From assembly GCA_965206285.1 (NCBI GenBank), contig OZ242205.1, positions 6,620,259 through 6,684,258 of the forward strand: 64,000 nt of DNA. The letters are read 5' to 3'. Below, in pieces: positions 32,077 through 61,954 of this stretch. Position 1 is the stretch's first letter; each line of letters starts with the position of its first letter. The stretch is from Vicinamibacterales bacterium. GTDB taxonomy: Bacteria; Acidobacteriota; Vicinamibacteria; Vicinamibacterales; UBA8438. A model generated the notes under the pieces. The model did no database searches and was not told the origin of the DNA. It saw only the letters and a list, made by a program, of their open reading frames with translations. The translations under genes and the position numbers were made by a program.

Positions 32077-32131
32077 GCGCCGTCGATGACCGCGCAGAAA
32101 ACGTCATTTTCGGGAGCTCGGCAACAGTTGC

Positions 32132-36975: not shown

Positions 36976-37347
36976 CCTCTGTCTCCTTGCGCTCTTTCGA
37001 GCGGCTCTAGGGGTGGGGAACGGTCTTGAGCCCGGCACCGGCGCGGGCTGGCTCGTCGAGGTCAACCGGCCCGCGCTGCCGCCGGCTTACACCCTTGCCG
37101 CGCGGTCGGTCCTCGACGGCGTGCAGCAGGCCTGGTGCGTCATGACCCAGGACGTCCGGCCGTTCGACTCCTGCATCCCCATGCCTTGACGGCGATGTGC
37201 GGGCGCAGGCGGTCTGGCACGCGTTCGATGGTCTCGGGCGGGCCGTCGCCATGACCGAAAACGGCGATTAAGCACCGCAGGTTTTCGGAGGCGTTGCCCG
37301 GGCCGTGGCCCGCGACGAACTGGACCCGTCCCCAGGCCCGGCGTTAA

Positions 37348-38828
37348 CAGCCCGTGGAAGAAGTCTATTCGCTGAGCCGACCTGTTCAGGCGGCTTGGCG
37401 ATGAGCGATTGAGCCGACCAGCCCCGCTGGCGTCCATTGGAAGTCCCAAGAGGCCGTCAGACGCCCCCAGAGCGCGGTCAGGCGAGCGATCAGTCCGCAA
37501 ATGGCCGAAAGAGCCCGCCCCTGCAGGCTCCGGGGCGTGCCGACGCCGGTCAGCCGGCGCAGCAGCAGTCCGAGGTTGCAACCGGCCGCCTGGATGAGCA
37601 CCCGCTTGCGCACATTCTCGTGGCCGCGCACCCACACTCGCCGCAGCCCCCCGGTCTCGTACTGGTGCGCGAAAGGCCGCTCCACCAGCTCCCCGCGACG
37701 GCGTTGAAGACGACGGCCTCGGTCGCCGCGAATACGCCGACGGTTCCCATACAACGCCTTCTGCGCAGCACGTTTCCCCACCGGCGTCTCTCCCGTCTTC
37801 TTGTCCTGCCAACAGCGCCGACCCCGCTCCGGCTCCGAGACGTAGCTGCGAACCCCAATCTCGTCGAGAGCCACCAGCGTCGCGTCGCTGTGGTACCCCT
37901 TGTCGGCGACCACCTCTTCGACCTCCGCACCGGCCGGCTGCACCGCCTCGACCTGCTCAGCCGCCATCGTCAGCGTCTCCGGCAGCGTCGCCGAATCGCC
38001 CTCCGACGCATCCTGCACCGTCACCGAGAGGATGGCGCCCGTCTCCATGTCGACCCCGTGCTCCGCCTTGTGGGCCAAGTGCGTCCGACCGTCCTTCATC
38101 TTTGCGATCTTCGCGTCCGGGTCCTGCGGAGACTGCCACTCCTTGTTCGACGTCTTCCTGTCCTTCCGGGACCGGTCAAACCGCGCCAACTCCGCTCGCG
38201 TCGGCGTCTCAATCCCCGATGCCTTCGCCAGCTGACGCACGAACGCCTCGTACGATTCCCCGGTATCCCGCCGCTCGATGCTCCGCATCGCCGCGTTCGC
38301 TTCCAGCGTCGTCGCATCGACGCCGACCGTCTTCCCCTGCACCAGACCCGCTCCCGCCAACCGTTCCAGCACCCACGTGAAAACCGCCACGTGCGTTTCC
38401 ACGTCGATCAGACGCCGCGTGCGCGACAGCGTCGAGTGGTTCGGCGGCGCCTCGGTCACGTCCAGGTCCAGGAAAGCCCGCAGGCTCAGAGAATCCGCGA
38501 CCCGCCACGCAATCCCCCGCTCCGACGACAGACCCTCGAAGTAGCCGATGAACAGCAGCCGGAAATACCGCCCAGGACGCAGACTCGGGCGCCCCAGCCG
38601 CGACGCGTAGAACACCGCGCACAACCCCTCCACAATGGCATCGAATCCGGCCTCCTCCAGAACCCGGTTCAGCCGTTCGAAAAAGGGATGTCCCGCGCTC
38701 GTCGGAAGGTCCGCTGTGGTCACCCACATCGGCGACGGCTGTCGCGCCGCCGGCTTCTTGCCCATTGCCATGCCGCCAAGTCTACGCCACTCCGTCGACT
38801 CCGATCTATCGACTTTTGCCACAGGCTG
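37348..38828 (-). mobile_element. IS5-family-like insertion sequence, copy 1 (1481 bp), 4-bp duplication TTAA
   Basis: Ends are CAGCCCGTGGAAGAAGTC / rc CAGCCTGTGGCAAAAGTC. TTAA at 37344-37347 and 38829-38832. About 98-99% identical (by eye) to copy 2. Confidence 0.85.
37386..38771 (-). CDS. IS5/IS1182-superfamily transposase (DUF772 + DDE), copy 1
   Basis: HPFFERLNRVLEEAGFD, RPSLRPGRYFRLLFIGYFEGLSSERGIAWRVADSLSLRAFL, PNHSTLSRTRRL, GVDATTLEANAA, VADKGYHSD. Confidence 0.9.
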   Translation of the reverse strand: MAMGKKPAARQPSPMWVTTADLPTSAGHPFFERLNRVLEEAGFDAIVEGLCAVFYASRLGRPSLRPGRYFRLLFIGYFEGLSSERGIAWRVADSLSLRAFLDLDVTEAPPNHSTLSRTRRLIDVETHVAVFTWVLERLAGAGLVQGKTVGVDATTLEANAAMRSIERRDTGESYEAFVRQLAKASGIETPTRAELARFDRSRKDRKTSNKEWQSPQDPDAKIAKMKDGRTHLAHKAEHGVDMETGAILSVTVQDASEGDSATLPETLTMAAEQVEAVQPAGAEVEEVVADKGYHSDATLVALDEIGVRSYVSEPERGRRCWQDKKTGETPVGKRAAQKALYGNRRRIRGDRGRRLQRRRGELVERPFAHQYETGGLRRVWVRGHENVRKRVLIQAAGCNLGLLLRRLTGVGTPRSLQGRALSAICGLIARLTALWGRLTASWDFQWTPAGLVGSIAHRQAA

Positions 38829-39220: not shown

Positions 39221-40711
39221 CAGCCCGTGGAAGAAGTCTATTCGCTGAGCCGACCTGTTCAGGCAGCTTGGCGATGAGCGATTGAGCCGACCAGCCCCGC
39301 TGGCGTCCATTGGAAGTCCCAAGAGGCCGTCAGACGCCCCCAGAGCGCGCTCAGGCGACCGATCAGTCCGCAAATGGCCGAAAGAGCCCGCCCCTGCAGG
39401 CTCCGGGGCGTGCCGACGCCGGTCAGCCGGCGCAGCAGCAGTCCGAGGTTGCAACCGGCCGCCTGGATGAGCACCCGCTTGCGCACATTCTCGTGGCCGC
39501 GCACCCACACTCGCCGCAGCCCCCCGGTCTCGTACTGGTGCGCGAAAGGCCGCTCCACCAGCTCCCCGCGGCGGCGTTGAAGACGACGACCTCGGTCGCC
39601 GCGGATACGCCGACGGTTCCCATATAATGCCTTCTGCGCAGCACGCTTCTCCGCCGGCGTCTCTCCCGTCTTCTTGTCCTGCCAACAGCGCCGACCCCGC
39701 TCCGGCTCCGAGACGTAACTCCGAACCCCAATCTCGTCGAGAGCCACCAGCGTCGCGTCGCTGTGGTACCCCTTGTCGGCGACCACCTCTTCGACCTCCG
39801 CACCGTCCGGCTGCACCGCCTCGACCTGCTCAGCCGCCATCGTCAGCGTCGCCGGCAGCGTCGCCGAATCGCCCTCCGACGCATCCTGCACCGTCACCGA
39901 GAGGATGGCGCCCGTCTCCATGTCGACCCCGTGCTCCGCCTTGTGGGCCAAGTGCGTCCGACCGTCCTTCATCTTTGCGATCTTCGCGTCCGTGTCCTGC
40001 GGAGACTGCCACTCCTTGTTCGACGTCTTCCTGTCCTTCCGGGACCGGTCAAACCGCGCCAACTCCGCTCGCGTCGGCGTCTCAATCCCCGATGCCTTCG
40101 CCAGCTGACGCACGAACGCCTCGTACGATTCCCCGGTATCCCGCCGCTCGATGCTCCGCATCGCCGCGTTCGCTTCCAGCGTCGTCGCATCGACCCCGAC
40201 CGTCTTCCCCTGCACCAGACCCGCTCCCGCCAACCGTTCCAGCACCCACGTGAAAACCGCCACGTGCGTTTCCACGTCGATCAGACGCCGCGTGCGCGAC
40301 AGCGTCGAGTGGTTCGGCGGCGCCTCGGTCACGTCCAGGTCCAGGAAAGCCCGCAGGCTCAGAGAATCCGCGACCCGCCACGCAATCCCCCGCTCCGACG
40401 ACAGACCCTCGAAGTAGCCGATGAACAGCAGCCGGAAATACCGCCCAGGACGCAGACTCGGGCGCCCCAGCCGCGACGCGTAGAACACCGCGCACAACCC
40501 CTCCACAATGGCATCGAATCCGGCCTCCTCCAGAACCCGGTTCAGCCGTTCGAAAAAGGGATGTCCCGCGCTCGTCGGAAGGTCCGCTGTGGTCACCCAC
40601 ATCGGTGACGGCTGTCGCGCCGCCGGCTTCTTGCCCATTGCCATGCCGCCAAGTCTACGCCACTCCGTCGACTCAGGTCGACTCCGATCTATCGACTTTT
40701 GCCACAGGCTG
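39221..40711 (-). mobile_element. IS5-family-like insertion sequence, copy 2 (1491 bp), 4-bp duplication CTGA
   Basis: Same ends as copy 1. CTGA at 39217-39220 and 40712-40715. 10-bp extra segment near the right end relative to copy 1. Confidence 0.85.
39259..40644 (-). CDS. IS5/IS1182-superfamily transposase, copy 2
   Basis: Differs from copy 1 by a handful of substitutions (e.g. PQDTDAK, LPATLTM, QPDGAE, ETPAEKR). Confidence 0.9.
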   Translation of the reverse strand: MAMGKKPAARQPSPMWVTTADLPTSAGHPFFERLNRVLEEAGFDAIVEGLCAVFYASRLGRPSLRPGRYFRLLFIGYFEGLSSERGIAWRVADSLSLRAFLDLDVTEAPPNHSTLSRTRRLIDVETHVAVFTWVLERLAGAGLVQGKTVGVDATTLEANAAMRSIERRDTGESYEAFVRQLAKASGIETPTRAELARFDRSRKDRKTSNKEWQSPQDTDAKIAKMKDGRTHLAHKAEHGVDMETGAILSVTVQDASEGDSATLPATLTMAAEQVEAVQPDGAEVEEVVADKGYHSDATLVALDEIGVRSYVSEPERGRRCWQDKKTGETPAEKRAAQKALYGNRRRIRGDRGRRLQRRRGELVERPFAHQYETGGLRRVWVRGHENVRKRVLIQAAGCNLGLLLRRLTGVGTPRSLQGRALSAICGLIGRLSALWGRLTASWDFQWTPAGLVGSIAHRQAA

Positions 40712-42202
40712 CTGACCCTGGAGTGCATCGACCGGATGTACCTCAACGTTTACGTGCCCTTGCTTCAGAGGGCCGCGGGGGCGGCGTACTTCTTCCGCAA
40801 GATGCGGGGCGCGGCCGTACCGTCCTCGGCTCTGATGGCCCCCATGACCCAGCGCTTCGTCGACGCCATCAAGAGCTTCGCCGCCCGCAACCGGATCGAG
40901 ATCGTGACGTTCCGCCGCGGCGAGCGCAAGGACGACCGTACCCGGCAGTACCTCCGCCGGTGGTCCGGCGGCGAGGGCGTCCTCTACATCGGCAAGGCCC
41001 AGGAGAAGGCGAAGGTGGTACGCACCGAGCGCCGCCACGACCCCGCCACCGGCGACACCTACCCGTGGCTGGCCGCCTCGACGGCGATGGTCAACCAGTT
41101 CTACTTCTACGCCGTCGACGACGACTTCGGCCCGTTCTTCTTGAAGTTCTGCTCGTACTTCCCCTACAACGCCAAGCTGTGCATCAACGGGCACGAGTAC
41201 CTCAAGCGGCAGCTGACGAAGCGGGGCATCGCCTACGAGTCGCTCGACAACGGAATCCTGCGCTGCTCGGACCCCGAACGCCTGCAGCGTCTGGCCGACG
41301 GGCTGACGGCGGCGAAGGTCGACGCGCTGCTGCGCAAGTGGCTGGCCCGCCTGCCCCACCCCTTCGCGGCCTCCGATCGTCAGCAGGGCATCCGCTACGA
41401 CGTCTCGATTCTCCAGGCCGAGTTCGCTCTGACCCAGGTCTTCGACCGGCCCGCGCAGGGGCGGGTCTTCTTCGAGGAGGTGGTGCGCGAGAACCTCGAC
41501 ATGGGTCGGCCCGACCACGTGCAGTTGATCTTCGACCGGCGCGTCAGCCGGCGCACCCCCTCGCGGTATCGCACCCGCGTCATAACCGACGGAGTCATCC
41601 CGTCGCTGCACGTCGACTACAAGCACTCGCGCATCAAGCAGTACCACAAGGAAGGGCGCGCGCTGCGCACCGAGACGGTCATCAACGACACGTACGACTT
41701 CGATGTCGGCCGCCGGCTGAGGAACCTCGATGATCTGAAGAAGATCGGCTTCGCCGCCAACCGACGCCTGCTCGGCGTCCAACGCCTCAGCCACGACTGC
41801 ACCCTCGGCGCCGACGTGCTCGACGAGCTGCACCGTCCGGTGTGCATCGACGGCCAACGCGCCTCGGCGCTCCGCTTCGGCGACCCGCGGGTGCAGAGCC
41901 TCTTCGCCTCCCTGCTGCGGTTCGACCTGCTGCCGCAGGGCTTCCGCAACCGGGACCTGCGCGAGACGGTGGCGGCGCTCTGCGGGCTCTCGCCCGACGA
42001 CTACGGCCCGGGCCGCATGACCTACGACCTGCGCCGGCTCCGGCTGCGGGGCATCATCGAACGGATTCCCCGCACCCAGCGGTATCGACTCACCGCCGAG
42101 GGGCTGTGCGTCGCCCTCGCCTACCACCGCACGCAGGCGCGAGTTCTGGGTCCCGTCGTGTCCGCGACCCCTCGACGGGGAATCGACCACGCGCCTGCGT
42201 GA
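40712..42202 (+). pseudogene. body of the conserved hypothetical gene interrupted by IS5-like copy 2
   Basis: About 495 codons after the IS: LECIDRMYLNVYVPLLQRAAGAAYFFRKMRG...FYFYAVDDDFGPFFLKFCSYFPYNAKLCINGHEYLKRQL... Good coding statistics. Function not recognised. Confidence 0.7.
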
Positions 42203-45046: not shown

Positions 45047-46174
45047 CTACTGCAGCGGCGGGTCCGGCCTCGGCATCAGCTCGGTGAACGACGCCTCTTC
45101 CAGGCGGTCGAAGCGTTGCGTGTGTCCCCGCACGTTGTCGGCGCCGTACCAGGTGCCGTTCGAGTCGACCGAGAACTGGTGCAGCTCTCGGAACGTGCCC
45201 GGACCCTCTCCTTCGAGGCTGAACGTGAAGAGCCGGTTGCCGTTCACGTCCAGCTTGATCATCTTGGGGGGCATGTTGTCCGCCACCCAGACGTCGTACC
45301 CGCTGACGTAGATGTCGTTCGGGAAGTCGAAGTCGGGCCAGGTGCCGATGGGCGAGATGTTCGGGTGATACCACACCGACCGGGTCGTCTGGTTGAACAC
45401 CTGCACCCGGTCGTTGTTCCGGTCCGCGACGTAGATGTTGCCTCGGACGTCGGCGGCGACCGCGTGCACGCCGTCGAACTGTCCGCGGCCGCTGCCCTTC
45501 ACGCCCCAGTGGGTCACGTAGTTGCCCTCGGCGTCCAGCTTCACCACGCGCGAGTTGTCGAGGCCGTCGGCGACGAACATCGTCCCGTCCTCCAGGAACG
45601 CGATGTCCTGGGGGCGTCCGAAGTGCGTCTCGTCGTCGCCGCCCACGCCTTCCTCGCCGAGCGTCATCAGCAGCTCGGAGCCGTCGTTCGAGAAGGCGTA
45701 AATGACGTGCTTCGTCTCGTTGACCACCCACACCCGCCTCTCCGGGTCGTAGGGGCTGATGCGGATCTTGTGGGGGCCGTTGGTGCCCTCGAACAGCGAG
45801 TCCCACTGGGTCCAGGACTCGATCAGGTTGCCGTCGCCGTCGACGGCGAAGATGCTGTTGCGCCAGACCCGCTGGCCCTCCTCGGGCCGCAGGGCGTTCA
45901 GGCCGATGGACCCGACGAAGCCTTCGAAGCCGGGGGGCACCGGGTCGGGAAGCCGGAACTCGCCCCGCTGGGTGATGAAGATGCGGTCCGGCGACTCGGC
46001 GAACACCCCGGAGTGGGAGCCCCAGGCGAAGCCGGCCTCGGCGAACGGCTTCATCCACCCGTCGACGATGTTGTAGGGGCTCTCGCCGACGACGAGGCGC
46101 TCCTGCAGGGACGCCGGTCCGGCCACGAGGCCGGCGCCGACCATGACGGCCAGGACGAGAACAGACGTGCGCAT
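45047..46174 (-). CDS. secreted NHL-repeat six-bladed beta-propeller protein (copy 1)
   Basis: RBS GGAAGGA and signal peptide MRTSVLVLAVMVGAGL. NHL repeats (GRGQFDGVHAVAADVRGNIYVADRNNDRVQVF, FGRPQDIAFLEDGTMFVAD). Confidence 0.88.
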   Translation of the reverse strand: MRTSVLVLAVMVGAGLVAGPASLQERLVVGESPYNIVDGWMKPFAEAGFAWGSHSGVFAESPDRIFITQRGEFRLPDPVPPGFEGFVGSIGLNALRPEEGQRVWRNSIFAVDGDGNLIESWTQWDSLFEGTNGPHKIRISPYDPERRVWVVNETKHVIYAFSNDGSELLMTLGEEGVGGDDETHFGRPQDIAFLEDGTMFVADGLDNSRVVKLDAEGNYVTHWGVKGSGRGQFDGVHAVAADVRGNIYVADRNNDRVQVFNQTTRSVWYHPNISPIGTWPDFDFPNDIYVSGYDVWVADNMPPKMIKLDVNGNRLFTFSLEGEGPGTFRELHQFSVDSNGTWYGADNVRGHTQRFDRLEEASFTELMPRPDPPLQ

Positions 46175-46356: not shown

Positions 46357-47481
46357 CTATTGCAGCGCCGGGTCCGGCCTCGGCATCAGCTCGGTGAACG
46401 ACGCCCCTTCCATCCGGTCGAACTTCTGGGTCCGACCCATCATGGTGTCGACCCCGTACCAGGTCCCGTTCGAATCGACCGAGACCTGGTGCAGCTCGCG
46501 GAACTGGCCCGGACCGTCGCCTTCGAGACCGAAGGTGAAGAGCTGGTTGCCGTTCACGTCCAGCTTGATCATCCTCGGCGGCCGGTTGTCCACCACCCAC
46601 ACGTCGTACCCGCTGACGTAGATGTCGCTCGGGAACTCGAAGCCGGGCCACGTGCCGATGGGCGAGATGTTCGGGTGGTACCACACCGACCGGGTCGTCT
46701 GGTTGAACACCTGCACCCGGTCGTTGTTGCGGTCGGCGACGTAGATGTTGCCGCGGACGTCGGTGGCGACCGCGTGCACGCCGTCGAACTGGCCCCGGCC
46801 GCTGCCGTTCACGCCCCAGTGGGTCACGTAGCTCCCCGCGGCGTCCAGCTTCACGATGCGGGAGTTGCCGCTGTCGGCGATGAACATCGTCCCGTCCTCC
46901 AGGAACGCGATGTCCTGCGGGCGTCCGAAGTGCGTCTCGTCGTCGCCGCTGACGCCTTCCTCGCCCAGCGTCATCAGCAGCTCGGAGCCGTCGTTCGAGA
47001 ACGCGTAGATGACGTGCTGCGTCTCGTTGACCACCCACACCCGACGGTCCGGGTCGAAGGCGCTGATCCGGACCCTGTGCGGGCCGTTGGTGCCCTCGAA
47101 GAGAGAGTCCCACTGCGTCCAGGACTCGGTCATGTTGCCGTCGCCGTCGACGACGAAGATGCTGTTGCGCCAGACCCGCTGGCCCTCCTCGGGCTGCACG
47201 GCGTTGATGCCGATGGACCCGACGAAGCCGGCGAAGCCGGCGGGCAGCGGATCGGGCAGCCGGAGCTCGCCGCGCTGGACGATGAAGATGCGGTCCGGCG
47301 ACTCGGCGAACACGCCGGCGTGGGAGCCCCAGGCGAAGCCGGCCTCGGCGAAGGGCTTCATCCAGTCGTCGACGACGTTGTAGGGGCTGTCGCCGACGAC
47401 GAGGCGCTCCTGCAGGGAGGCGGGTCCGGCCAGGAGGCCGGCGCCGACCATGACGGCCAGGACGAGAACAGACGTGCGCAT
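46357..47481 (-). CDS. secreted NHL-repeat six-bladed beta-propeller protein (copy 2, tandem duplicate)
   Basis: About 85-90% aa identity (by eye) to 45047-46174, including the signal peptide. Confidence 0.88.
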   Translation of the reverse strand: MRTSVLVLAVMVGAGLLAGPASLQERLVVGDSPYNVVDDWMKPFAEAGFAWGSHAGVFAESPDRIFIVQRGELRLPDPLPAGFAGFVGSIGINAVQPEEGQRVWRNSIFVVDGDGNMTESWTQWDSLFEGTNGPHRVRISAFDPDRRVWVVNETQHVIYAFSNDGSELLMTLGEEGVSGDDETHFGRPQDIAFLEDGTMFIADSGNSRIVKLDAAGSYVTHWGVNGSGRGQFDGVHAVATDVRGNIYVADRNNDRVQVFNQTTRSVWYHPNISPIGTWPGFEFPSDIYVSGYDVWVVDNRPPRMIKLDVNGNQLFTFGLEGDGPGQFRELHQVSVDSNGTWYGVDTMMGRTQKFDRMEGASFTELMPRPDPALQ

Positions 47482-47540: not shown

Positions 47541-48539
47541 CTACCGCGTTCCCTCGACCGGCTGCGTGTTCAGGCGCCGGGCGCCGGCCAGGATGCCTGG
47601 CAGCCCGTAGTTGCCCTCGTGGCAGGCGTACTCGAACAGCGGGCCGTCGGTGCGCCGGAAGGGAATCGCCGCCGTCCACGGCCGCGTGTAGTTGTTCGGG
47701 TCGTCGATGGTGAACTCGTACATCACCGTGTCCGGGTCGATGCGCGTGAAGCGCTCGACGAGCTCGGTGTCCTTGGACGAACCGCTGAAGTTCGTCGCCT
47801 GCCGGAAGTTCCGGGTCTCGACGATCAGCGAATCGCCCTCGTAGCGCCCGCGGGAGTCGCCGACCCACAGGGGTATGTCGCCGTGCTCGGGGTCGCCGAC
47901 CGGGATGATCCGGGTGTTGTGGATATGCTCGTTGAGTATCGCCACGTACCCCGGCGCCTGCAGGATCATCACGTTGTTGTTGTACGAACCCGGCCGCATC
48001 GGAGGGCCGGAGTTCGATCCCATCAGGCAGCGGTCCCCCAGGCTGCGGTCGGTGTAGTGGTCCCCGAACCCGTTGCGCAGGTTCAGCCGCCGGATGCGGT
48101 TCGCCTCGTTGAACTCCGCGGTGTAGGGAATGCGCCCATTCGGGGGATCGACGACGAGCGACGTCCGCTTGTCGCTGGTCAGCTCGATGCCGCGCTCGTA
48201 CCAGAACTCGTTGTAGGACAGCACCCCGCCCTCGGACCGGGACTGATAGCCGGCGCTCGGCGCGCCGGTCTCCGGATCGAAGAGGTCGCGGTTGAGCCGC
48301 GTCCGCTCCGACGCTTCGAAGGCCGCCGCCTCCTCGGGAGTGAGCGTCGCCTGCTCGCCCAGGACCTCGGGACGCTGCAACGGGGTGAGGGTGCGGAACG
48401 TGAACACCCCGGAGACGTCGGGGTACTCGGCCGGCAGGGCGGTCGCCTTCGGGCCGTCCGGGGCCTGCGCCGGCGCCGGGAGCGGCGCGAGCAGGAGTGC
48501 AAGGATCGCGAACGATCCGGCCAGGCGTCTTGTCGTCAT
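47541..48539 (-). CDS. exported protein of the 'GDSRGRWEGDTLVV / EYACHEGNYG' family (paralog X2)
   Basis: RBS GGAGG and signal peptide. GDRCLMG, GDSRGRYEGDSLIVETRNF, LVERFT, FEYACHEGNYG. First gene of an X2-NHL-NHL same-strand array. Confidence 0.85.
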   Translation of the reverse strand: MTTRRLAGSFAILALLLAPLPAPAQAPDGPKATALPAEYPDVSGVFTFRTLTPLQRPEVLGEQATLTPEEAAAFEASERTRLNRDLFDPETGAPSAGYQSRSEGGVLSYNEFWYERGIELTSDKRTSLVVDPPNGRIPYTAEFNEANRIRRLNLRNGFGDHYTDRSLGDRCLMGSNSGPPMRPGSYNNNVMILQAPGYVAILNEHIHNTRIIPVGDPEHGDIPLWVGDSRGRYEGDSLIVETRNFRQATNFSGSSKDTELVERFTRIDPDTVMYEFTIDDPNNYTRPWTAAIPFRRTDGPLFEYACHEGNYGLPGILAGARRLNTQPVEGTR

Positions 48540-48961: not shown

Positions 48962-49483
48962 ATGAAGAGACATGGTGTCGCGCGGTGGTGGCTCGTCCCG
49001 GTCGCGGCGGTCGCGGGCGTCGCCTGGATCGGGCTGTCGGAAGCGGCCGCCCAGCCGAGCGACAGGAACATCTCGGCCGGGCGCCGGCTGTACCACCAGA
49101 AGGCCGACTGCCAGGCGTGTCACGGGTGGTCGGGCGACGGCGTGAAGATGGACAACCAGGCGCCGGACGGGGCGAACCTGCGCGAGAGCGGCCTCGGCCG
49201 CGAGCAGCTCGTCTTCGTCATCAAGTGCGGGCTGCCGGGCCGGGAGATGCCCGCGTTCGACCGGCTCGCCTACACCGACGACCGCTGCCTCGGCCGGACC
49301 CGGCGCGACCTCGAGCGCATGGGCCTGAGGCTGCCGGAGCCGGGCGCGACCCTGCAGAACCGGGAGGTCGAGCGGCTGGTGGACTTCCTGCTCGCCAAGG
49401 TCGTCGGTCAGGGCGACATGAACCGCGAGCGCTGCATCGACTTCTGGGGCGAGGAGGTCGACGTGTGCAACACGTTGCCGTGA
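48962..49483 (+). CDS. membrane-anchored/secreted class I cytochrome c
   Basis: Signal/anchor WWLVPVAAVAGVAWIGL. Heme motif CQACHG and distal ligand region GREMPAF. Confidence 0.8.
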   Translation: MKRHGVARWWLVPVAAVAGVAWIGLSEAAAQPSDRNISAGRRLYHQKADCQACHGWSGDGVKMDNQAPDGANLRESGLGREQLVFVIKCGLPGREMPAFDRLAYTDDRCLGRTRRDLERMGLRLPEPGATLQNREVERLVDFLLAKVVGQGDMNRERCIDFWGEEVDVCNTLP

Positions 49484-51741: not shown

Positions 51742-52737
51742 TCAGAAGACCGCAATCGGGTTGAGCGGCGACCCTGTCCCGCCCTCGACGGGGATCGGCC
51801 CGGCCGTGAGCATGAACTCCCACCGGTTCTCGCGCGCCGCGGTCTTCGCGAGCGCCTCGAGGTCCATGTTGTCGAAGATGTTGGTGCCGAAGCCGGCGAT
51901 CAGCATCGTATGGACGGGCTGGGTGACGCCCTCGACCAGCGACGGCATCACGTCGGTGGCGGCGTCGCTGCCCACGAACGCCACGCCGCGCTCCTTGATC
52001 CAGGGGAGCACCGACGCGTGCAGGCCGGCGCTGTTGCCCGACACCTGCCAGGGGCCGAGCTCGGCGCGGCGCGCCCACCGGCCGGTCCGCACGAAGATCA
52101 CGTCGCCCGGCGATACCGTGACGCCGGCCATCTCCTCCCACGCCTCGATGTCCTCGACGTAGATCGGCGTCTGCGGCTCGAGGTACGGCACGCCCTCGAG
52201 GCGGGGGAAGTCGAGGAGGATGCCGCGGGTGACGATGCCCTGCTTCAGGTTCTGGATGCCGAGCCTGCCGCATCCCTCCGGCGTGCTCGCCGACGGCGGG
52301 ACGTCGTTGTAGAGCCGGTCGTTCCAGATGAAGTGGCAGAGCGAGTCGATGTGGCTGACGCTGTAGCCGTGATAGGTGAACTCGTAGGTGTCGCTGCGCA
52401 GCGATCGGCCCATGGTGTGGTTGAACGACGCGTCGGGGTTGTCCACCTCGGGGTCCGGCATGGGGTTGTGCGAGAGCGACACGGTGATGCCACGCCGGAC
52501 GAGGCCCGCCGCCTCGCGGGTCTTCTCCGGGGTGATCAGGTTCATGGTGCCCAGCTCGTCGTCCGCCCCCCAGCGGCCCCAGTTGTTGATCTCCTGGAAC
52601 ATCGCGTCGAACTCCGCCACGTTCCGGGGGGTGCGCGGCTCCTGCGCGTGGACGAGGACGGCGGTGGCGACCGCGATGGTGACCGTGCCGGCGAGGGCTC
52701 CGAGTCGGACGAATGGGGTTCCGGTCCTGGGTGTCAT
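51742..52737 (-). CDS. secreted cyclase-family protein (kynurenine-formamidase-like), paralog 1
   Basis: Signal peptide. YHGYSVSHIDSLCH (HxGxxxxHxDxxxH-type motif), GDVIFVRTGRW, FVGSDAATD. Confidence 0.85.
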   Translation of the reverse strand: MTPRTGTPFVRLGALAGTVTIAVATAVLVHAQEPRTPRNVAEFDAMFQEINNWGRWGADDELGTMNLITPEKTREAAGLVRRGITVSLSHNPMPDPEVDNPDASFNHTMGRSLRSDTYEFTYHGYSVSHIDSLCHFIWNDRLYNDVPPSASTPEGCGRLGIQNLKQGIVTRGILLDFPRLEGVPYLEPQTPIYVEDIEAWEEMAGVTVSPGDVIFVRTGRWARRAELGPWQVSGNSAGLHASVLPWIKERGVAFVGSDAATDVMPSLVEGVTQPVHTMLIAGFGTNIFDNMDLEALAKTAARENRWEFMLTAGPIPVEGGTGSPLNPIAVF

Positions 52738-55569: not shown

Positions 55570-56565
55570 ATGAAGGACTGTCGAATCTGGATAGCGGCGG
55601 CGGGCTTGCTGGCGGTGGGTCTCGCGACGCTGGCGCCGCCGGTCGGAGCGCAGGCCGCGCGCGAGGTGACGGCGGAGACGGTTGCGCAGTGGATGACGGA
55701 GCTGTCGAACTGGGGCCGGTGGGGCGACGACGACGAGATGGGCGCGCTCAACCTGATCACACCCGAGAAGCGGCGGGCGGCGCTGGCCCTGGCCACGGCG
55801 GGGGTGTCGGTGTCGCTCTCGCACAACTACCTCACCGAGCGGGCCCTCGACGCCACCTCGCCGGTCGGCTACGAGATGCTGGGACCGGACCGCCCGGGGC
55901 CGTTCCGCAGCGACCGCTACACGTTCGCCTACCACGGCTACGCCCACTCGCACATGGACTCGCTCTGCCACATGATGCACGACGGGCGGATGTACAACGG
56001 CTACGTCCGCGACGACGAGGTGACGGCGGGGGGCTGCGCGAAGCTCGCGATCATCAACTTCAAGCAGGGAATCGTCACCCGCGGCGTGCTGCTGGACATC
56101 GCGCGACTCAAGGGGGTGGACTATCTCGAGCCGGGCACGCCGATCTACGTCGAGGACCTCAAGGCGTGGGAGCGCGAGGCGGGGGTGACGGTCGAGCCGG
56201 GGGACATCCTGTTCGTCCGGAACGGCCGCTGGGCCCGCCGGGCCGAGTTCGGAGCGTGGGAGACGGGGCGCGAGTCCGCGGGGCTGCACGCCTCGGTCGC
56301 CCCGTGGCTGCGCGAGCGGGGCGTGGCGATGCTCGGCGCCGACGGGACCAACGACGTGCTGCCGTCGGGGGTCGAGGGGGTGACGCAGCCGATCCACCAG
56401 CTCACGATCGTCGCGATGGGGATGCCGCTCTTCGACAACCTCGACCTCGAGGCGGTGGCGGCGGAGGCGGCGCGGCAGAACCGGTGGGAGTTCCTGCTGG
56501 TGGCGGCGCCCCTCGCGATGGACGTCGGCACCGGCTCGCCGCTCAACCCGCTGGCGATCTTCTGA
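55570..56565 (+). CDS. secreted cyclase-family protein (kynurenine-formamidase-like), paralog 2
   Basis: Signal peptide. YHGYAHSHMDSLCH, GDILFVRNGRW, MLGADGTND. About 60% identical (by eye) to 51742-52737 and in inverted orientation. Confidence 0.85.
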   Translation: MKDCRIWIAAAGLLAVGLATLAPPVGAQAAREVTAETVAQWMTELSNWGRWGDDDEMGALNLITPEKRRAALALATAGVSVSLSHNYLTERALDATSPVGYEMLGPDRPGPFRSDRYTFAYHGYAHSHMDSLCHMMHDGRMYNGYVRDDEVTAGGCAKLAIINFKQGIVTRGVLLDIARLKGVDYLEPGTPIYVEDLKAWEREAGVTVEPGDILFVRNGRWARRAEFGAWETGRESAGLHASVAPWLRERGVAMLGADGTNDVLPSGVEGVTQPIHQLTIVAMGMPLFDNLDLEAVAAEAARQNRWEFLLVAAPLAMDVGTGSPLNPLAIF

Positions 56566-56595
56566 TGGAGGTGCGGCGGGGTCGTGCCGGCATCG

Positions 56596-56772
56596 TCACT
56601 GATTCCGCGGCGGGGTCGAGTCGCGACCGGTGATGGCGTCGCGCAGGCCTACCAGCAACCCCTCGACGCGGGCGAGTCGTTCGCCCCGCAGCCGCACGTG
56701 CGAATCCATCCGGAACACCAGGGACGCGATTCCCACGCCGACGCCGACTACCGTCCATGCTTCGGGAGTCAT
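56596..56772 (-). CDS. possible 58-aa single-TM protein
   Basis: Hand translation: MTPEAWTVVGVGVGIASLVFRMDSHVRLRGERLARVEGLLVGLRDAITGRDSTPPRNQ*. It is below the ORF-track length cutoff and has no recognised homolog. Confidence 0.25.
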   Translation of the reverse strand: MTPEAWTVVGVGVGIASLVFRMDSHVRLRGERLARVEGLLVGLRDAITGRDSTPPRNQ

Positions 56773-57062
56773 CGTTCATGTACCTCTGCGTCCGCCGTCC
56801 TGCCACAAGACGTCGGCAGGAGCGATCACGCCGATGTATCAGGTTAGCAATTTCTGACACGTGCATCCACCAGCGATTCCGGTCGAACCGTGGTTGCGCC
56901 CGTCATGCCGGGATGGACGCCACACAGCGATCACAAGGGAGCAAGGACCGTGCCGTCTGCTGGCGTCTCGGCCGGCATCAGGTACGCTGGGGAGCCTTCT
57001 TGCCGCGCGGAGGCTGCCCGGGCCGGCTATAATCAGGCTCGCGTCACATCAGGAGGAAAGCC

Positions 57063-58052
57063 ATGAATCATCGAATGCTCGCCGCGGCCGGGAGCCTGGC
57101 CGTGCTGGTCGTGTTGTCGGCGCCGGTTTCCGTGTCGGCCCAGAGTGAGGCGGAGGCGCCGCGGACGCCCTGGGGAGCCCCCGATCTGCAGGGGGTCTGG
57201 GACTTCCGGACGATCACGCCCTTGGAACGTCCCGAGGAGCTCGGCGATCAGGCGTTCCTGACCGCGGAGGAAGCAGCCAATCAGGAACAGGAGGTCGTGG
57301 AACGGAACGCCCGGTTGTTGAACGAGGCGGCGCAGCGGACCGAGGCCGGAGGCAACGTCGGCGCCTACAACAACTTCTGGATGGACCGGGGCACCCGGAC
57401 GGTCGGAACCCGGCGGACGTCGCTCATCGTGGACCCGCCGAACGGGCGCATTCCGCCGTTTTCGGAAGCGGGGCAGGCGCGGGCCGACGCGCGGGCCGAG
57501 TACCGGAGCGAGCACCCCGCCGACTCGTGGGAGGATCGCAGCGTGGGCGAGCGTTGCGTGCTCGGGTTCAACTCGGGACCGCCGATGGAGCCGCGCGCCT
57601 ACAACAACCACATGCAGCTCTTCCAGACCGCCGACCACGTGGTGATTCTCAACGAGATGGTCCACGACGCGCGCATCATCCCCCTGGACGGCGGCGCGCT
57701 GGCGGAAGGGGTGACCCAGTGGATGGGAGACTCCCGCGGGCGCTGGGAGGGCGACACCCTGGTCGTCGACACGACCAACTTCTACAACAAGAACTCGTTC
57801 ACCGAGCGCTACGGGGCGACGGCGGCGATGACCCTGCAGGAGCGCTTCACGCGGGTCGACGCCGAGACGCTGGTCTACGAGTTCACGGTCGAGGACTCCG
57901 CGACCTGGACCTTGCCCTGGACCGTCGAGGTGCCGATGATGCGCTCGGAAGATCAGGTGTGGGAGTACGCGTGCCATGAAGGCAACTACGGGATGGACGG
58001 CATTCTCGCCGGCCACCGCGCCGAGGAACGCGATGCGGCGCAGGACCGGTAG
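57063..58052 (+). CDS. exported protein of the 'GDSRGRWEGDTLVV / EYACHEGNYG' family (paralog X3)
   Basis: RBS AGGAGGA and signal peptide. PRTPWGAPDLQGVW, GERCVLG, GDSRGRWEGDTLVVDTTNF, LQERFT, WEYACHEGNYG. Confidence 0.88.
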   Translation: MNHRMLAAAGSLAVLVVLSAPVSVSAQSEAEAPRTPWGAPDLQGVWDFRTITPLERPEELGDQAFLTAEEAANQEQEVVERNARLLNEAAQRTEAGGNVGAYNNFWMDRGTRTVGTRRTSLIVDPPNGRIPPFSEAGQARADARAEYRSEHPADSWEDRSVGERCVLGFNSGPPMEPRAYNNHMQLFQTADHVVILNEMVHDARIIPLDGGALAEGVTQWMGDSRGRWEGDTLVVDTTNFYNKNSFTERYGATAAMTLQERFTRVDAETLVYEFTVEDSATWTLPWTVEVPMMRSEDQVWEYACHEGNYGMDGILAGHRAEERDAAQDR

Positions 58053-58224
58053 GGGACCACGCGCCGGCACGGCGCGGAACGCGGCGGGATTGGCAGGGCG
58101 GGAATCGGCGCCGCGGGGCGGCGCTTCCCGGTCCAGGAGCCTGCGCCCTGGAACGGTGCAGACTCCGGGCGGGGTTGGTGGGGCGGCAATCGGAGCCGGA
58201 GGCGGCGATTTTCGGGCCAGGGCC

Positions 58225-59301
58225 TTGCGCGGGTTCCTGGCCGTCTGCATCGCGGCCGTCGTCCTGAGTCCCGCCGTTTCCGCGGCTGCGGCCCAGGACC
58301 ATCCCGGCGCCGAGCCCTACCAGCGCGTGTGCCAGTTGTGCCACGGGGCGGGGGGGCGCGGGGACATCGCTCCGGGGCTGGTTCCCCTGGGTTACGACGC
58401 CGAGTATGTGCTGGCCGTCGTGCGCGAGGGCTACAGCCAGATGCCCCCGATCTCGACGCGCGAGCTGACCGACGACGAGGTGCGGCAGGTCGTCGGCTAT
58501 CTCGATGCGCTGTCCGGCCCGCCGGCCGAAGCGCCGGCGAGCACCGCGGCGGCGACCGCTTCCGCGGCGTCCGCACTCGAAGCCGAGCAGCCTCCGGCCG
58601 GCGCGTCCGGCTACGACGGACCCCGGACCCCCGAGGGGCAGCCCGATCTGAACGGCTTCTGGCAGGTGCTGAGCTCGGCGGCCTGGGATATCCGCCCCCA
58701 CAACGCACAGGACGGCATTCCCGCCGGCCTCGGGGTGGTCGAGGGGGGCGGCATCCCCTACCAGCCGTGGGCGGCCGAGCAGCAGCAGGAGAACTACGCG
58801 AACCGGCTGACCGCGGACCCGGTGCGGCAGTGCTATCTGCCGGGGGTGCCGCGCGTCACCTACATGCCGTTTCCGTTCCGCATTCTGCAGACGCCGGACC
58901 ACATGGTCATCACCTACGAGTTCGCCCACGCGGTCCGCATCATCTACACCGACGGCAGCCCCCATCCGTTGCCGAACGACTTCTGGATGGGCGACTCGCG
59001 CGGGCACTGGGAGGGCGATACGCTGGTGGTCGACACCACCCACTTCAACGGGCGCACCTGGCTCGACGCGGCCGGCAACTTCCACAGCGAGGCCCTGCAC
59101 GTCGTCGAGCGCTACACCCCGATCACCCCGTATCACATCGACTACGAGGTCACTCTCGAGGACCCTGACGTGTTCACCCGTCCGTGGACGATGCGCATGA
59201 CGCTGTACCGCCGGATGGACCAGGGTCTGCAGATTCTCGACTACGACTGCGTCGACCATCTCCTGCAGGCGGCGGTCGAGCAGGAACAAGGAGACAGATG
59301 A
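58225..59301 (+). CDS. exported fusion: class I cytochrome c domain + divergent X-family domain (X4)
   Basis: Signal peptide (L)RGFLAVCIAAVVLSPAVSAAAAQ. CQLCHGAGG...YSQMPP, an Ala/Pro linker, then PRTPEGQPDLNGFW, RQCYLPG, MGDSRGHWEGDTLVVDTTHF, VVERYT, DYDCVDH. Start uncertain (TTG 58225 or GTG 58156). Confidence 0.75.
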   Translation: MRGFLAVCIAAVVLSPAVSAAAAQDHPGAEPYQRVCQLCHGAGGRGDIAPGLVPLGYDAEYVLAVVREGYSQMPPISTRELTDDEVRQVVGYLDALSGPPAEAPASTAAATASAASALEAEQPPAGASGYDGPRTPEGQPDLNGFWQVLSSAAWDIRPHNAQDGIPAGLGVVEGGGIPYQPWAAEQQQENYANRLTADPVRQCYLPGVPRVTYMPFPFRILQTPDHMVITYEFAHAVRIIYTDGSPHPLPNDFWMGDSRGHWEGDTLVVDTTHFNGRTWLDAAGNFHSEALHVVERYTPITPYHIDYEVTLEDPDVFTRPWTMRMTLYRRMDQGLQILDYDCVDHLLQAAVEQEQGDR

Positions 59302-60251
59302 TGAGCGCTCGACGAGCCATCGGCGCGGCGCTGCTTCTCGCGTTGGCGGCGGCGCCCGCCGCCGCGGGCCAGGACGGCGACTACGAGCCCCCGCGCACGC
59401 CGTGGGGCGACCCCGACTTCCGCGGCCACTATCTGCCCGGCCGGTCCCAGCCGATGGAGACCCCCGCGAACGCCTCGTGGCGCCCGCCGGAAGGCGCCAG
59501 CCTCGGGCAGGGAGCGGCGTTCTCCCGGTTCTTCGAGCCCGACCCGGACGCGCCGCCGCGCCCCGGGCGCGTCACCCGGCCGATGGTCGTCGACCCGCCT
59601 GACGGCCGCATTCCGCTCCAGCCGTGGGCGTCCGAGCGCCGGGGCGAGGTGATGGCGCGGCAGGACGAGCTCGAGCATCTCGACCCCCGGGTCAAGTGCC
59701 TCCCCGCGGCCCTGCCCCGCGCGCACCTGCCGGTGGGCTACAACACCTACCAGATCCTGCAGGTCCCCGGGCACGTCGTCATCCTCTACGAGTGGAACCA
59801 CCACTCGCGCTACATCCCCCTCGACGGCAGCCCCCACCCCGACCCCGAGATCCGCCTCGGCATGGGCGACTCGCGCGGCCGCTGGGAGGGGAACACCCTG
59901 GTCGTCGACGTGACCAACTTCACCGCGAACACGTGGCCGGTGGGGCACGGCGCGCCCCCCGAGGGAGCCCCGGCGAGCGCCCTCGCCACCGGGCACGGGG
60001 TGTTCCACAGCGGCGACCTGCACGTGGTCGAGCGCTTCACCCTGGTCGACGACGACACCATCCGCTACCGCGTGACCATCGAGGACCCCGAGGTCTTCAC
60101 GCAGCCGTGGACCATCGAGTTCGACGCGCTGCGGCGGGCCCCGGACGACCACATGCTGTTCGAGTACGCCTGTCACGAGGGCAACGGGCGCAACCTGTCG
60201 CTCATGACCGGCGCCGACCTCGAGGACATTCGGGTGAACCCCATAAGGTAG
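59298..60251 (+). CDS. exported protein of the X family (paralog X5)
   Basis: ATGA start/stop overlap with the previous gene, and signal peptide. PRTPWGDPDFRGHY, VKCLPA, GDSRGRWEGNTLVVDVTNF, VVERFT, FEYACHEGNG. Confidence 0.85.
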   Translation: MMSARRAIGAALLLALAAAPAAAGQDGDYEPPRTPWGDPDFRGHYLPGRSQPMETPANASWRPPEGASLGQGAAFSRFFEPDPDAPPRPGRVTRPMVVDPPDGRIPLQPWASERRGEVMARQDELEHLDPRVKCLPAALPRAHLPVGYNTYQILQVPGHVVILYEWNHHSRYIPLDGSPHPDPEIRLGMGDSRGRWEGNTLVVDVTNFTANTWPVGHGAPPEGAPASALATGHGVFHSGDLHVVERFTLVDDDTIRYRVTIEDPEVFTQPWTIEFDALRRAPDDHMLFEYACHEGNGRNLSLMTGADLEDIRVNPIR

Positions 60252-60255
60252 ACCG

Positions 60256-60678
60256 ATGCGAAAGACTGCAACCTCGTTTCTGGCCCTGGCCGGCGCCGTC
60301 ATGCTGTTGGCGCCGGCCGGATCGGTATCCGCGCACCATGCCTTCTCGGCCGAGTTCGACGCCAACCGGCCGTTGCAGCTCACGGGCACGGTGGCGCGCA
60401 CGGAGTGGATCAATCCCCACTCGTGGATTCACGTCGACGTCACCGCCGACGACGGTGCGGTGACGACCTGGGCGATCGAGTGCGGCGCGCCGAACTCGCT
60501 GATGCGGCGCGGGCTCAACAAGAACTCGATCCCGGCCGGCACCGAGTTGGTCATCGACGGCTTCGGGGCCAAGGACGGTTCGAACACCGCGAACGCGCGC
60601 GACATCACCTTCCCCGACGGGTCGCGCTTCTTCGTCGGGTCGTCCGGCACCGGCGCGCCGTACGAACGCAACCGCTGA
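60256..60678 (+). CDS. DUF6152-like small exported protein (predicted mature N-terminus HH...)
   Basis: Signal peptide ...PAGSVSA|HHAFSAEFD. TGTVARTEWINPHSWIHVDV and GAKDGSNTANARDITFPDGS match my memory of the DUF6152 family. Starts 4 nt after X5. Confidence 0.75.
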   Translation: MRKTATSFLALAGAVMLLAPAGSVSAHHAFSAEFDANRPLQLTGTVARTEWINPHSWIHVDVTADDGAVTTWAIECGAPNSLMRRGLNKNSIPAGTELVIDGFGAKDGSNTANARDITFPDGSRFFVGSSGTGAPYERNR

Positions 60679-60725
60679 GCCGGCCGGCCTGCCGCAGCCG
60701 CGTGCGGCGGCCGCGAGTAGTCGTG

Positions 60726-61484
60726 ATGCAGAATCGGTACGTCGGTGACGTGGGAGACTTCATAAAGTAAGGGCTCCTGCGGGCGATCCGAGGATTGACT
60801 GGCAAGGGCACGCTCGACAGAGCGCTCAGTGCTCCCGGTTTCGACGCGAAGCCCCTGGGAGTCGCATGGTACTTGCACCCCGACGCAGGGCCGGCTGGTG
60901 ACGGTCGCCACACCGCATACCTCAAGGAACGGGAGGAGTGGCGACATCTTGACCCTGAGTTGTTCGATACCCTGAAGAAGCTGATCGGTGCCGGCACTCG
61001 CAGGGCGGTCAAGACCATCCAGGAGTCGGGCATTCTCGGGGATGCTGTTTTCGCTGGTGATCCTATCGACATCGCAAGGGTCAGAGTTCGGGAACGTGAG
61101 CAATGGCGACACCAGTGGTTTCGCCGTATCCAAGACCAGCTCGTCGACTGCGACATCGTCTTTGCCGACCCGGACAACGGGCTCGCCCTGGACGATCGCT
61201 TCCGGGCGGCAAGACAGGTAGCGGCGAAGCGAATACCGCTCGCCGAGGCGGCAGCGCTCGCCGAAGGACGAACCGCCGTGATCTACCACCACAACAGCAG
61301 GCGCCGCGGTGGCCATCTCGGCGAGATTCGGTGGCTGAAGGACCACCTGCCGGGCGGCACGATTGCCTACTACTGGCGCCGTGTGAGCAATCGGACGTTC
61401 TTCGTCATCAATCCAACCGACCAAGTCCGCCGGCGAGTCCTTGAGTTCGTGAACCGATGGGGAGACCGGGGCCAGTTGGTGTGA
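60726..61484 (+). pseudogene. hypothetical protein gene with in-frame TAA at codon 15
   Basis: ATG 60726: MQNRYVGDVGDFIK-TAA(60768-60770)-GLLRAIRGLTGKG... continues in the same frame into the 229-aa ORF 60795-61484 (DIVFADPDNGL, VIYHHNSRRRGGH, FFVINPT). Confidence 0.55.
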
Positions 61485-61559
61485 TTTGATTCCCTTCAGT
61501 CCGAGAAGGTTCACGTGTCTCCGCGGCGTGAGGTGCGGACCTCTTGCGATCAACTCAGG

Positions 61560-61954
61560 CTATGACGGGTCGGTCGGGGCGTATCGGACGTCCCAGATTC
61601 GAAGCAGCTCGCGGCATCCATCGTCGAAACTGCGGGTGAAATCGACTATCTGCATCTGCGGAAGGGTCCAGGACAATTGGTCGTAGGCGCACGCTCGATG
61701 CAGCACGGGAGCGATGCGTCCTTCGAACCGGTCCTGCTGGAGGGCGTACAGCCCAAGGCGTCGGGAGAGAGAACGACGACGAACCAGTCGCAACGCTGGA
61801 GCGCTCTGCCGATCTCGTCGTGCCACTGCTGGGCGCCGCGGATGTCGGTGTCGCTGTACCAGACCGGAACGCGATGGCGGCGCAGAACACCCACCAGCCA
61901 ATCGACGAACGCCTGATCCTTGTGCGAATGTGAGACGAAGACTTCGGTCGGCAC
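61560..61954 (-). pseudogene. TIR-domain protein gene, frameshifted/internally deleted
   Basis: MPTEVFVSHSHKDQAFVDWLVGVLRRHRVPVWYSDTDIRGAQQWHDEIGRALQRCDWFVVVLSPDAL is a TIR N-terminal half. The C-terminal half (LYALQQDRFEGRIAPVLHRACAYDQLSWTLPQMQIVDF...) is in another frame from about 61770. Confidence 0.7.

Follow-up and report, generated by a model that had tools for sequence, protein, structure and literature searches.

What do four consecutive exported genes of a Vicinamibacterales bacterium do together, when three of them carry copies of the same unnamed domain (here called X), one of these copies is joined to a cytochrome c, and the fourth gene encodes a DUF6152 protein predicted to start with two histidines? 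The genes lie at positions 57063-60678 of a 64,000-nucleotide (nt) stretch of contig OZ242205.1 (the window, by which we mean the whole stretch analysed). An earlier note, made from the letters alone, had described them as a four-gene operon with a possible role in periplasmic electron transfer. Best supported by our comparison across genomes is an exported module in which a pair of X proteins, one short and one full length, acts together with DUF6152; that this module is a periplasmic metallo-redox enzyme or electron-transfer unit is the interpretation that we prefer, with a probability of about 0.4. The parts of the locus are as follows.

57063-58052, + strand: X1, exported full-length X-family protein (open reading frame [ORF], 329 amino acids [aa])
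58033..59301, + strand: cX2, consisting of signal peptide, class I cytochrome c, Ala/Pro linker and short-type X (start uncertain)
58297..58503, + strand: mono-haem class I cytochrome c domain of cX2 (PF13442; CQLCHG, distal Met in YSQMPP)
58618..59298, + strand: short-type X domain of cX2 (from the alignment; covers hidden Markov model positions 127-307)
59298-60251, + strand: X3, exported full-length X-family protein (ORF, 317 aa)
60256-60678, + strand: DUF6152 protein, 140 aa (PF19649; predicted cleavage between VSA and HHAFSAEFD)

Gene order was compared at 80 DUF6152 loci in GTDB genomes (Vicinamibacterales, Bryobacterales, Thermoanaerobaculia, Holophagales, Candidatus Multivorans and one gammaproteobacterial metagenome-assembled genome). 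An X gene ended less than 400 bp upstream on the same strand at 67 of these loci and lay within 6 kb at 78, and the pairing was found in Alphaproteobacteria as well, so that the linkage of X to DUF6152 first proposed from this one locus holds across genomes. The X genes beside DUF6152 were of two types, short (stopping before CHEGN, as the copy in cX2) and full (as X3); both types were present at 52 loci, the full type only at 10, the short type only at 10, and neither at 8. One protein (P0129, 528 aa) carries short X and then full X in a single chain, and this fusion, a Rosetta-stone hint, suggests that the two act as a pair. An X1-type gene accompanied the other three only in the six closest genomes (L005-L007 and L009-L011); X1-type orthologues elsewhere (L090 and L092) had genes for pyrroloquinoline quinone (PQQ) dehydrogenases and for cytochromes c around them and lacked a DUF6152 gene in the vicinity. 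The conserved core therefore consists of three genes, not four: the cytochrome-short-X fusion, full X and DUF6152, tightly packed, in an arrangement that recurs across Acidobacteriota. To speak of a four-gene operon was thus an overstatement, correct for the core and wrong for X1, which is a lineage-specific addition.

All four ORFs of the locus are on the + strand, and each has an N-terminus resembling a signal peptide when assessed by eye (basic n-region, hydrophobic core, small -3/-1 pair), which agrees with the Sec-type signals reported before. X1 has a strong ribosome-binding site (AGGAGGA, 57050-57056) 7 nt ahead of its ATG. The TGA of cX2 and the ATG of X3 overlap as ATGA at 59298-59301, with AGGAGA just before, and 4 nt separate the TAG of X3 from the ATG of DUF6152 at 60256; both junctions, as already described, can be read directly in the DNA, and by its ATGA overlap X3 is translationally coupled to cX2. 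For cX2 itself the longest ORF begins at 57976 and the gene caller picked the ATG at 58033, and the signal peptide becomes N-terminal only if GTG 58156 or TTG 58225 is the start. The late start is favoured because orthologous cytochrome-X fusion genes encode 326-340 aa, and it leaves a gap of 100-170 nt behind X1. Directly 3' of the DUF6152 stop, a GC-rich inverted repeat (GCCGCA...TGCGGC, 60679-60720) with no T-run may mark the transcript end; a scan for promoters and consensus terminators was uninformative and did not report this repeat, and an Rfam scan of 56000-61500 yielded no riboswitch.

Could these genes be a chance run of paralogous exported genes with no joint function? The window does hold a high density of exported proteins from expanded families (PQQ, NHL, cyclase, amidohydrolase and X), and X1 is a neighbour of one lineage; yet immediate same-strand adjacency at the 67 loci, kept across phyla at about 30% identity, together with start/stop overlaps and the existence of a short-X and full-X fusion protein, speaks otherwise. 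The conservation data already contradict a chance run, which we consider extremely improbable.

The X domain is the larger part of the puzzle. The three copies of the module align over their full length at 36-39% identity (tblastn within the window: X1-X3, 3e-34; X3-X2, 1e-38; X1-X2, 2e-23), and by these E-values their paralogy is far beyond chance. PRTPWG.PD, a conserved Cys, GDSRGRWEG(D/N)TLVVD and VVERFT were all present in the alignment, as was EYACHEGN against DYDCVDH in cX2, so the shared motifs and the divergent middle copy are as they had been described. The short-type X of cX2 retains PRTPEGQPDL, both cysteines and the barrel motifs, and is without the middle insert and the CHEGN C-terminus. 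Two further full-length paralogues bring the copies to five in the 64-kb window; there are four in L090.

13913-14926, + strand: full-length X paralogue, 337 aa, 53% identical to X1 (tblastn in the window)
47541-48539, - strand: full-length X paralogue, 332 aa, 44% identical to X1 (tblastn in the window)

A full HMMER scan of 1.84 billion representatives, clustered at 50% identity, returned 9,856 X clusters at E ≤1e-3 and 3,804 at 1e-10. The X proteins of the window had no match in Pfam or NCBIfam, 85 diverse members searched against Pfam at E up to 5 gave no consistent match, phmmer and profile searches of PDB sequences found none, and every source that names X calls it a hypothetical protein. 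The claim that X fits no characterised family is borne out by these searches: in the libraries searched (Pfam, NCBIfam and PDB), X is a large unannotated family. Dioxygenase_C was considered as a relative and dismissed as noise (3/85 members, E 0.09). Longer X-containing proteins held no Pfam domain save a doubtful methyltransferase tail, and none held CxxCH. P0200 (1-280), P0241 (~330-505) and P0234 (1-300) have additional N- or C-terminal domains that match nothing in Pfam, and two of these resemble small beta-rich modules of a common type.

An AlphaFold2 model of X3 (85-sequence alignment; predicted local distance difference test [pLDDT] 86.2, predicted template-modelling [TM] score 0.85) has eight consecutive antiparallel strands at 151-280 plus N-terminal strands, and its N-terminal segment PRTPWG.PDL is modelled at pLDDT >95. 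Foldseek found no PDB match for it at E ≤1e-3; the best were FABP/CRABP structures (E 1.6e-3, probability 0.97-1.0, TM 0.44-0.50 on the target and about 0.23 on the query), and among the 85 X members the Pfam lipocalin, FABP and YceI families gave no match at E up to 5. The model suggests that the C-terminal half of X is a predicted antiparallel beta-barrel of the calycin (FABP-like) type, and since the Foldseek matches are weak we regard X as a new family with at most a remote barrel core of this kind. Across 508 X sequences, Q155, E165, R171, W196, E245, R246, Y257, D263 and W271 were essentially universal, and C134 and C292 were both present in 497; the near-universality of the two cysteines suggests a disulfide between them. 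His168 and the CHEGN histidine (His293) were rejected as a universal metal site, being only about 80% conserved, and for this reason X is without an obvious one. EYACH was also rejected as a single-cysteine haem-attachment motif: its His is about 80% conserved and is absent in short X and in P0129.

A barrel of this sort might point to carriers of ligands rather than to redox chemistry. X proteins would then be lipocalin- or FABP-like periplasmic binders that bring substrates or cofactors, such as a molecule with a carboxylate, to the exported enzymes encoded beside them; DUF6152 would be accessory, and the cytochrome fusion an add-on of one lineage. FABP/CRABP barrels are the sole structural resemblance that X has, and the conserved Arg and Tyr on its barrel strands recall the Arg-Arg-Tyr carboxylate clamp of FABPs. 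Each genome has many X paralogues, and X genes stand directly upstream of Abhydrolase_10, NHL propeller, GH39-like and PQQ dehydrogenase genes. Such carriers would, however, leave unexplained both the repeated independent association with c-type cytochromes and the strict pairing with a protein of His-His N-terminus, and the Foldseek resemblance is weak (E >1e-3, query TM 0.23). We think this explanation unlikely.

The partner of X in this pairing is assigned with confidence to DUF6152 (PF19649, E 6.8e-31, 106.7 bits against a gathering threshold of 27), its residues 18-111 matching profile positions 3-95 of 98, in line with the label DUF6152-like. Twenty-eight close homologues were near-invariant from H27 on, behind a variable signal peptide that always ends small-x-small. 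In 82 homologues from 80 genomes the sequence at this point was invariably Ala followed by HHAFSAEFD, a set that was retrieved partly via the HHAFSAEFD motif and is thus biased for the His-His start. For an unbiased test, tblastn against plasmids supplied ten proteobacterial DUF6152 proteins, 25-36% identical. Their conserved part opened with Ala and then His-His in all ten (HHSFAMFD, HHSYSMFD, HHSTGAFY, HHGWSTYD and HHGWGGYE), NPH was kept in nine (APH in one), and an acidic residue was kept in nine (Tyr in Sinorhizobium, HHSTGAFY). As read from these alignments, the hallmark of DUF6152 is His1-His2, an acidic residue about eight positions on, and the NPH histidine. Because conservation begins exactly at the first of these histidines, after a variable signal peptide ending in AxA, the mature chain most probably starts His-His by predicted cleavage; a mature N-terminal His had been claimed for this one protein, and as a prediction it extends, in the form AxA-HH, to more than 80 acidobacterial and 10 proteobacterial homologues. 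This conserved N-terminal histidine is the module's most striking single feature.

The AlphaFold2 model of DUF6152 has the strand order beta1-beta2-beta3-helix-beta4-beta5. Its best Foldseek matches were SSB, PriB, Mop/ModE and lysyl-tRNA synthetase OB (oligonucleotide/oligosaccharide-binding) domains, all at E 0.03 or weaker; against PDB nothing was found at E ≤1e-3 and no histidine-brace protein was matched, and sequence and profile searches of PDB sequences gave no match to DUF6152 and none to brace proteins. In this model of moderate confidence the fold looks like an OB-fold.

These results bear on the analogy, drawn in the earlier note, between the N-terminal His and histidine-brace copper proteins. 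Taken literally, it would mean that DUF6152 has a copper centre like those of LPMO, CopC or PmoB and that the fused cytochrome feeds the module as a copper oxygenase. A predicted mature N-terminal His was present in every homologue examined, H27, H28, D35 and H55 (the conserved Asp and the second conserved His, of NPH, among them) are candidate ligands, the partner protein carries a fused haem domain, and the Sphingobium module described below stands beside monooxygenase, oxidoreductase and peroxiredoxin genes. To our knowledge, all known histidine-brace proteins share an immunoglobulin (Ig)/cupredoxin sandwich, whereas the predicted fold of DUF6152 is OB-like; with this, with no sequence or profile match to brace proteins in the PDB, and with the cytochrome absent at most loci, the analogy is not supported in the form in which it was put, and a histidine-brace oxygenase seems to us quite improbable.

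A part in redox chemistry is suggested instead by the haem proteins. Its CxxCH, distal Met and profile match identify the N-terminal part of cX2 as a class I cytochrome c (48.1 bits to PF13442, cut-off 27, E 1.5e-12), and an Ala/Pro-rich linker joins it to short X, both as noted before. The best PDB sequence matches of this domain were QcrC, CcoP, PchC and SorU, and its best NCBIfam match was SorU (29.5 bits against a cut-off of 100). The fusion of class I cytochrome and short X was found at 21 of the 80 DUF6152 loci, all in the Vicinamibacterales nearest to the window, and any CxxCH gene within 6 kb at 37. A different haem protein, a class-II-type cytochrome c that is lipoprotein-like and has its CxxCH at the C-terminus, stood beside pairs of DUF6644 genes at 8 acidobacterial loci and in Novosphingobium humi; Bryobacterales are among its carriers. 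A third is encoded separately in the window.

48962-49483, + strand: separate exported class I cytochrome c, CQACHG (PF13442, E 3e-7), divergent from the X gene at 47541-48539

On this evidence from motifs and gene order, haem proteins are recruited in at least three separate ways (a fused class I domain, a class II-like protein with DUF6644, and a separate class I gene), and it is mainly for this repeated, separate recruitment that we favour a redox function for the module.

The DUF6644 genes are best seen outside the window, which has none in its 64 kb. In Alphaproteobacteria the X/DUF6152 pairing is kept at 25-36% identity (Sphingomonadales and Sinorhizobium). Novosphingobium humi has a GH39-like gene, X, DUF6152 (with a 4-nt overlap of X and DUF6152) and TetR, and, divergent from X-DUF6152, genes for two DUF6644 membrane proteins and a small cytochrome with C-terminal CxxCH; Sphingobium TomTYG65 has X-DUF6152-X-DUF6152 adjoining two DUF6644 genes, Croceibacterium atlanticum DUF6152-DUF6152-X and then a TonB-dependent receptor, and Sinorhizobium mexicanum DUF6152-X-DUF6644-DUF6644. 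Cupriavidus and Azospirillum have no X gene at this place; a single DUF6644 gene comes directly after DUF6152. A DUF6644 pair was found at 11 of the 80 acidobacterial loci, 8 of these with the class-II-type cytochrome c. Each DUF6644 protein has one invariant His, a DLRL.G stretch (Arg invariant) and a GR motif.

L093 4888-6381, L095 9680-10698 and L098 8415-9471: DUF6644 pair and cytochrome c'-like set
L050, L051, L052, L054, L061, L066, L069 and L077: further loci with the DUF6644 set

On the Sphingobium sp. TomTYG65 plasmid (L095; AP027331.1, 292521-308928), the doubled X-DUF6152 is flanked on one side by monooxygenase, oxidoreductase and peroxiredoxin genes and on the other by a TonB receptor gene, by tauD and by ssu genes of sulfonate utilisation. 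These neighbours could be a lead to the inducing condition, for example sulfur limitation or oxidative stress.

A small exported protein beside a membrane protein also recalls metal handling. DUF6152 could be a periplasmic metallochaperone (compare CusF and CopC) that passes metal to DUF6644 or to the X barrels in the course of metal acquisition or trafficking, the cytochrome serving only to shift the oxidation state of the metal. N-terminal His-His, Asp and NPH are conserved across the DUF6152 family, the Cupriavidus and Azospirillum arrangement of DUF6152 beside a single DUF6644 with no X is laid out like CopC-CopD, and the module has TonB-dependent receptor genes as neighbours in Croceibacterium and Sphingobium and at 10 of the 80 acidobacterial loci; such receptors are, however, common in these genomes regardless. 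Pfam gave weak hints that tie DUF6644 to DUF2214 (2/10 members, best E 0.0015) and to CopD (1/10, E 0.024), but hhalign of the DUF6644 profile against Escherichia coli YebZ (CopD) returned nothing (probability about 1%, 19 columns), and the window's own module is without DUF6644. What X conserves universally is Gln, Glu, Arg, Tyr and Asp, not His, Cys or Met, and no metal-responsive regulator or riboswitch adjoins the module of the window. Metal trafficking is accordingly somewhat unlikely in our estimate.

The reading that we prefer, a periplasmic metallo-redox enzyme or electron-transfer unit, would combine the parts as follows. Short X and full X would form a heterodimer, each chain stabilised by a structural disulfide between C134 and C292, and the X barrel would bind a polar, probably anionic, small molecule. 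DUF6152 would hold a metal, probably at its putative N-terminal site of His-His with the terminal amine, Asp35 and His55, residues that would fall where beta1 begins and in the loop from beta1 to beta2, on the face by which OB-folds usually bind ligands. The c-type haem probably links the module to electron transfer and would pass electrons between the putative DUF6152 site and the respiratory chain, as a fused domain in the lineage of the window and as a separate protein, with DUF6644 membrane proteins, elsewhere. The X pair, haem protein and DUF6152 would probably form a complex with metal and haem outside the cytoplasm of these soil and marine bacteria, and the module would belong to the periplasmic oxidative toolkit around X genes (PQQ dehydrogenases, cytochromes c and NHL propellers).

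A bolder form of this reading would make DUF6152 a new class of mononuclear copper or other redox-metal centre on an OB-fold, its N-terminal His-His resembling a histidine brace, and, with the X heterodimer, a new family of periplasmic oxygenases or oxidoreductases; X barrels would hold the substrate, and electrons would arrive via the fused class I cytochrome c or via DUF6644 and the class II cytochrome c. Soil and marine Acidobacteriota would have this family in abundance, and cultivable Sphingomonadales and rhizobia would have it too. We regard this extension as quite doubtful.

Several observations weigh against a metallo-redox unit. No CxxCH gene lay within 6 kb at 43 of the 80 DUF6152 loci, and loci of the Candidatus Multivorans type consist of short X, DUF6152 and full X with no cytochrome. 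Among the 508 X sequences, H168 and the CHEGN His fall short of universality, as given above, and in DUF6152 Cys76 and His59 are lost in Proteobacteria. The DUF6152 model is moderately confident (pLDDT 70.7) with an N-terminus below 50, and the Foldseek matches of both X3 and DUF6152 are non-significant. The link to PQQ genes may mirror their high density, and the three PQQ genes of the window are more than 30 kb from the module. No component of the module has a characterised relative, so that every functional step is one that we infer. The electron-transfer idea of the earlier note is thus supported in part: it gains from the independent haem proteins found at other loci and beside another X gene of the window, and loses by the restriction of the fusion to 21 loci and by the 43 loci with no CxxCH gene.

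What surrounds the module, at the other loci and in the window, adds context. The commonest further neighbours of the 80 DUF6152 loci were PQQ dehydrogenases (47 genes, within 6 kb at 32 loci), NHL propellers at 18, DUF5916/CBM9 at 18, cyclases at 10 and TonB-type outer-membrane proteins at 10. In the window, the X gene at 13913-14926 lies 50 nt upstream of an exported Abhydrolase_10 gene (PF20091, 14976-16637, + strand), and the X gene at 47541-48539 (- strand) 59 nt upstream of two tandem exported NHL propeller genes; the two PF01011 PQQ-type proteins of the window are 43% identical.

9416-10858 (-), 20533-22236 (+) and 23484-25319 (+): three PQQ-type beta-propeller dehydrogenases within 16 kb
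45047-46174 and 46357-47481, - strand: NHL-repeat six-bladed propeller genes, 86% identical
51742-52737 (-) and ~55600-56565 (+): exported putative cyclase (PF04199) paralogues, 55% identical, just upstream of the module

A specific partnership with PQQ dehydrogenases is not claimed, as their positions and orientations vary, the genomes are dense in PQQ genes and none lies within 30 kb of the module. Given that variation, and a window dense in such families, we take these neighbours as context (a periplasmic oxidative and hydrolytic toolkit), not as specific partners. The interval between the two cyclase paralogues encodes an aminotransferase and a protein whose leader is Tat-like (RRxF) and which gave a weak HD-domain match (E 0.007).

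The middle of the window is a mobile-element island, coincident with strong GC-skew swings at 30-42 kb, and three defence-like genes were also found.

37386-38822 and 39259-40746, - strand: insertion sequence copies (DUF772 and DDE_Tnp_1), 98.7% identical over 1416 nt
33956-35281: third DDE transposase
29724-31301: Mu-type transposase
32086-33933, + strand: UvrD-type helicase, defence-like
36148-37065, - strand: AbiU2-type HEPN protein, defence-like
61646-61954, - strand: short TIR-domain ORF, 102 aa, defence-like, just downstream of the module

How does the module compare with known systems? CopC-CopD and YcnI-YcnJ, in which a periplasmic copper protein with an N-terminal His ligand is paired with a membrane protein, resemble it in that DUF6152 is small and exported, has a predicted His start, a conserved Asp and a second His, and in Proteobacteria and Bryobacterales stands beside the small multi-pass DUF6644; they differ in that DUF6152 is predicted to be OB-like and has no sequence relation to them, DUF6644 showed no profile similarity to YebZ, and the module of the window lacks a membrane partner, having a haem and two X barrels instead. 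CusF is a Cu(I)/Ag(I) metallochaperone with a Met/Met/His/Trp site, encoded in a resistance-nodulation-division (RND) efflux operon. It is a small periplasmic OB-type barrel, as is predicted for DUF6152, and by analogy a metal site on the barrel face is plausible for DUF6152, but DUF6152 has no conserved Met, no RND efflux operon is present here, and CusF was not among the top 50 Foldseek matches of DUF6152.

The calycin barrels (FABP/CRABP, lipocalins and YceI) share with X the antiparallel beta-barrel predicted in its C-terminal half, and YceI is periplasmic and genetically linked to a cytochrome (b561), as X is to cytochrome c; X differs in its length of about 300 aa, its large conserved N-terminal wrap (PRTPWG.PDL, DPPDGRIP) and its C-terminal CHEGN helix region. 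SorU and PchC, small class I cytochromes c that accept electrons from periplasmic dehydrogenases, are among the best named matches of the cX2 haem domain, which is nonetheless covalently fused to X, does not dock on a molybdo- or flavo-enzyme and scores far below the family cut-off. The Planctomycete PSCyt/PSD-DUF1501 proteins, genes of which type stand beside X genes in L090, are likewise large, lineage-expanded exported families of which a subset has an N-terminal cytochrome c, but they have no sequence relation to X and differ in domain composition, size and taxonomic home. Searches of open-access papers in PubMed Central and of bioRxiv preprints found no mention of DUF6152, DUF6644 or either Pfam accession, the only two matches concerning DUF2214. 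By sequence and structure the module has no likeness to characterised systems and is in this sense new in kind, which reflects missing knowledge, not a demonstrated new mechanism.

X is one of the larger protein families still outside Pfam, NCBIfam and the PDB, and it belongs to the exported proteins of Vicinamibacterales, Bryobacterales and related Acidobacteriota, groups that live in abundance in soils, sediments, seawater and sponges. Several separate hypothetical proteins become one conserved module, in which X is tied to DUF6152, to c-type cytochromes and, elsewhere, to DUF6644. Conserved hypothetical clusters are common; unusual here are the huge family, the His-His on an unexpected fold, the repeated recruitment of haem and the cultivable hosts. 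Some carriers of the module can be cultivated and are genetically tractable (Novosphingobium humi, Sphingobium and Sinorhizobium mexicanum), and so is Azospirillum brasilense Sp7, which has the DUF6152-DUF6644 pair. If the His-His start is indeed a metal site on an OB-fold, DUF6152 would add a new scaffold to the few N-terminal-histidine metal centres.

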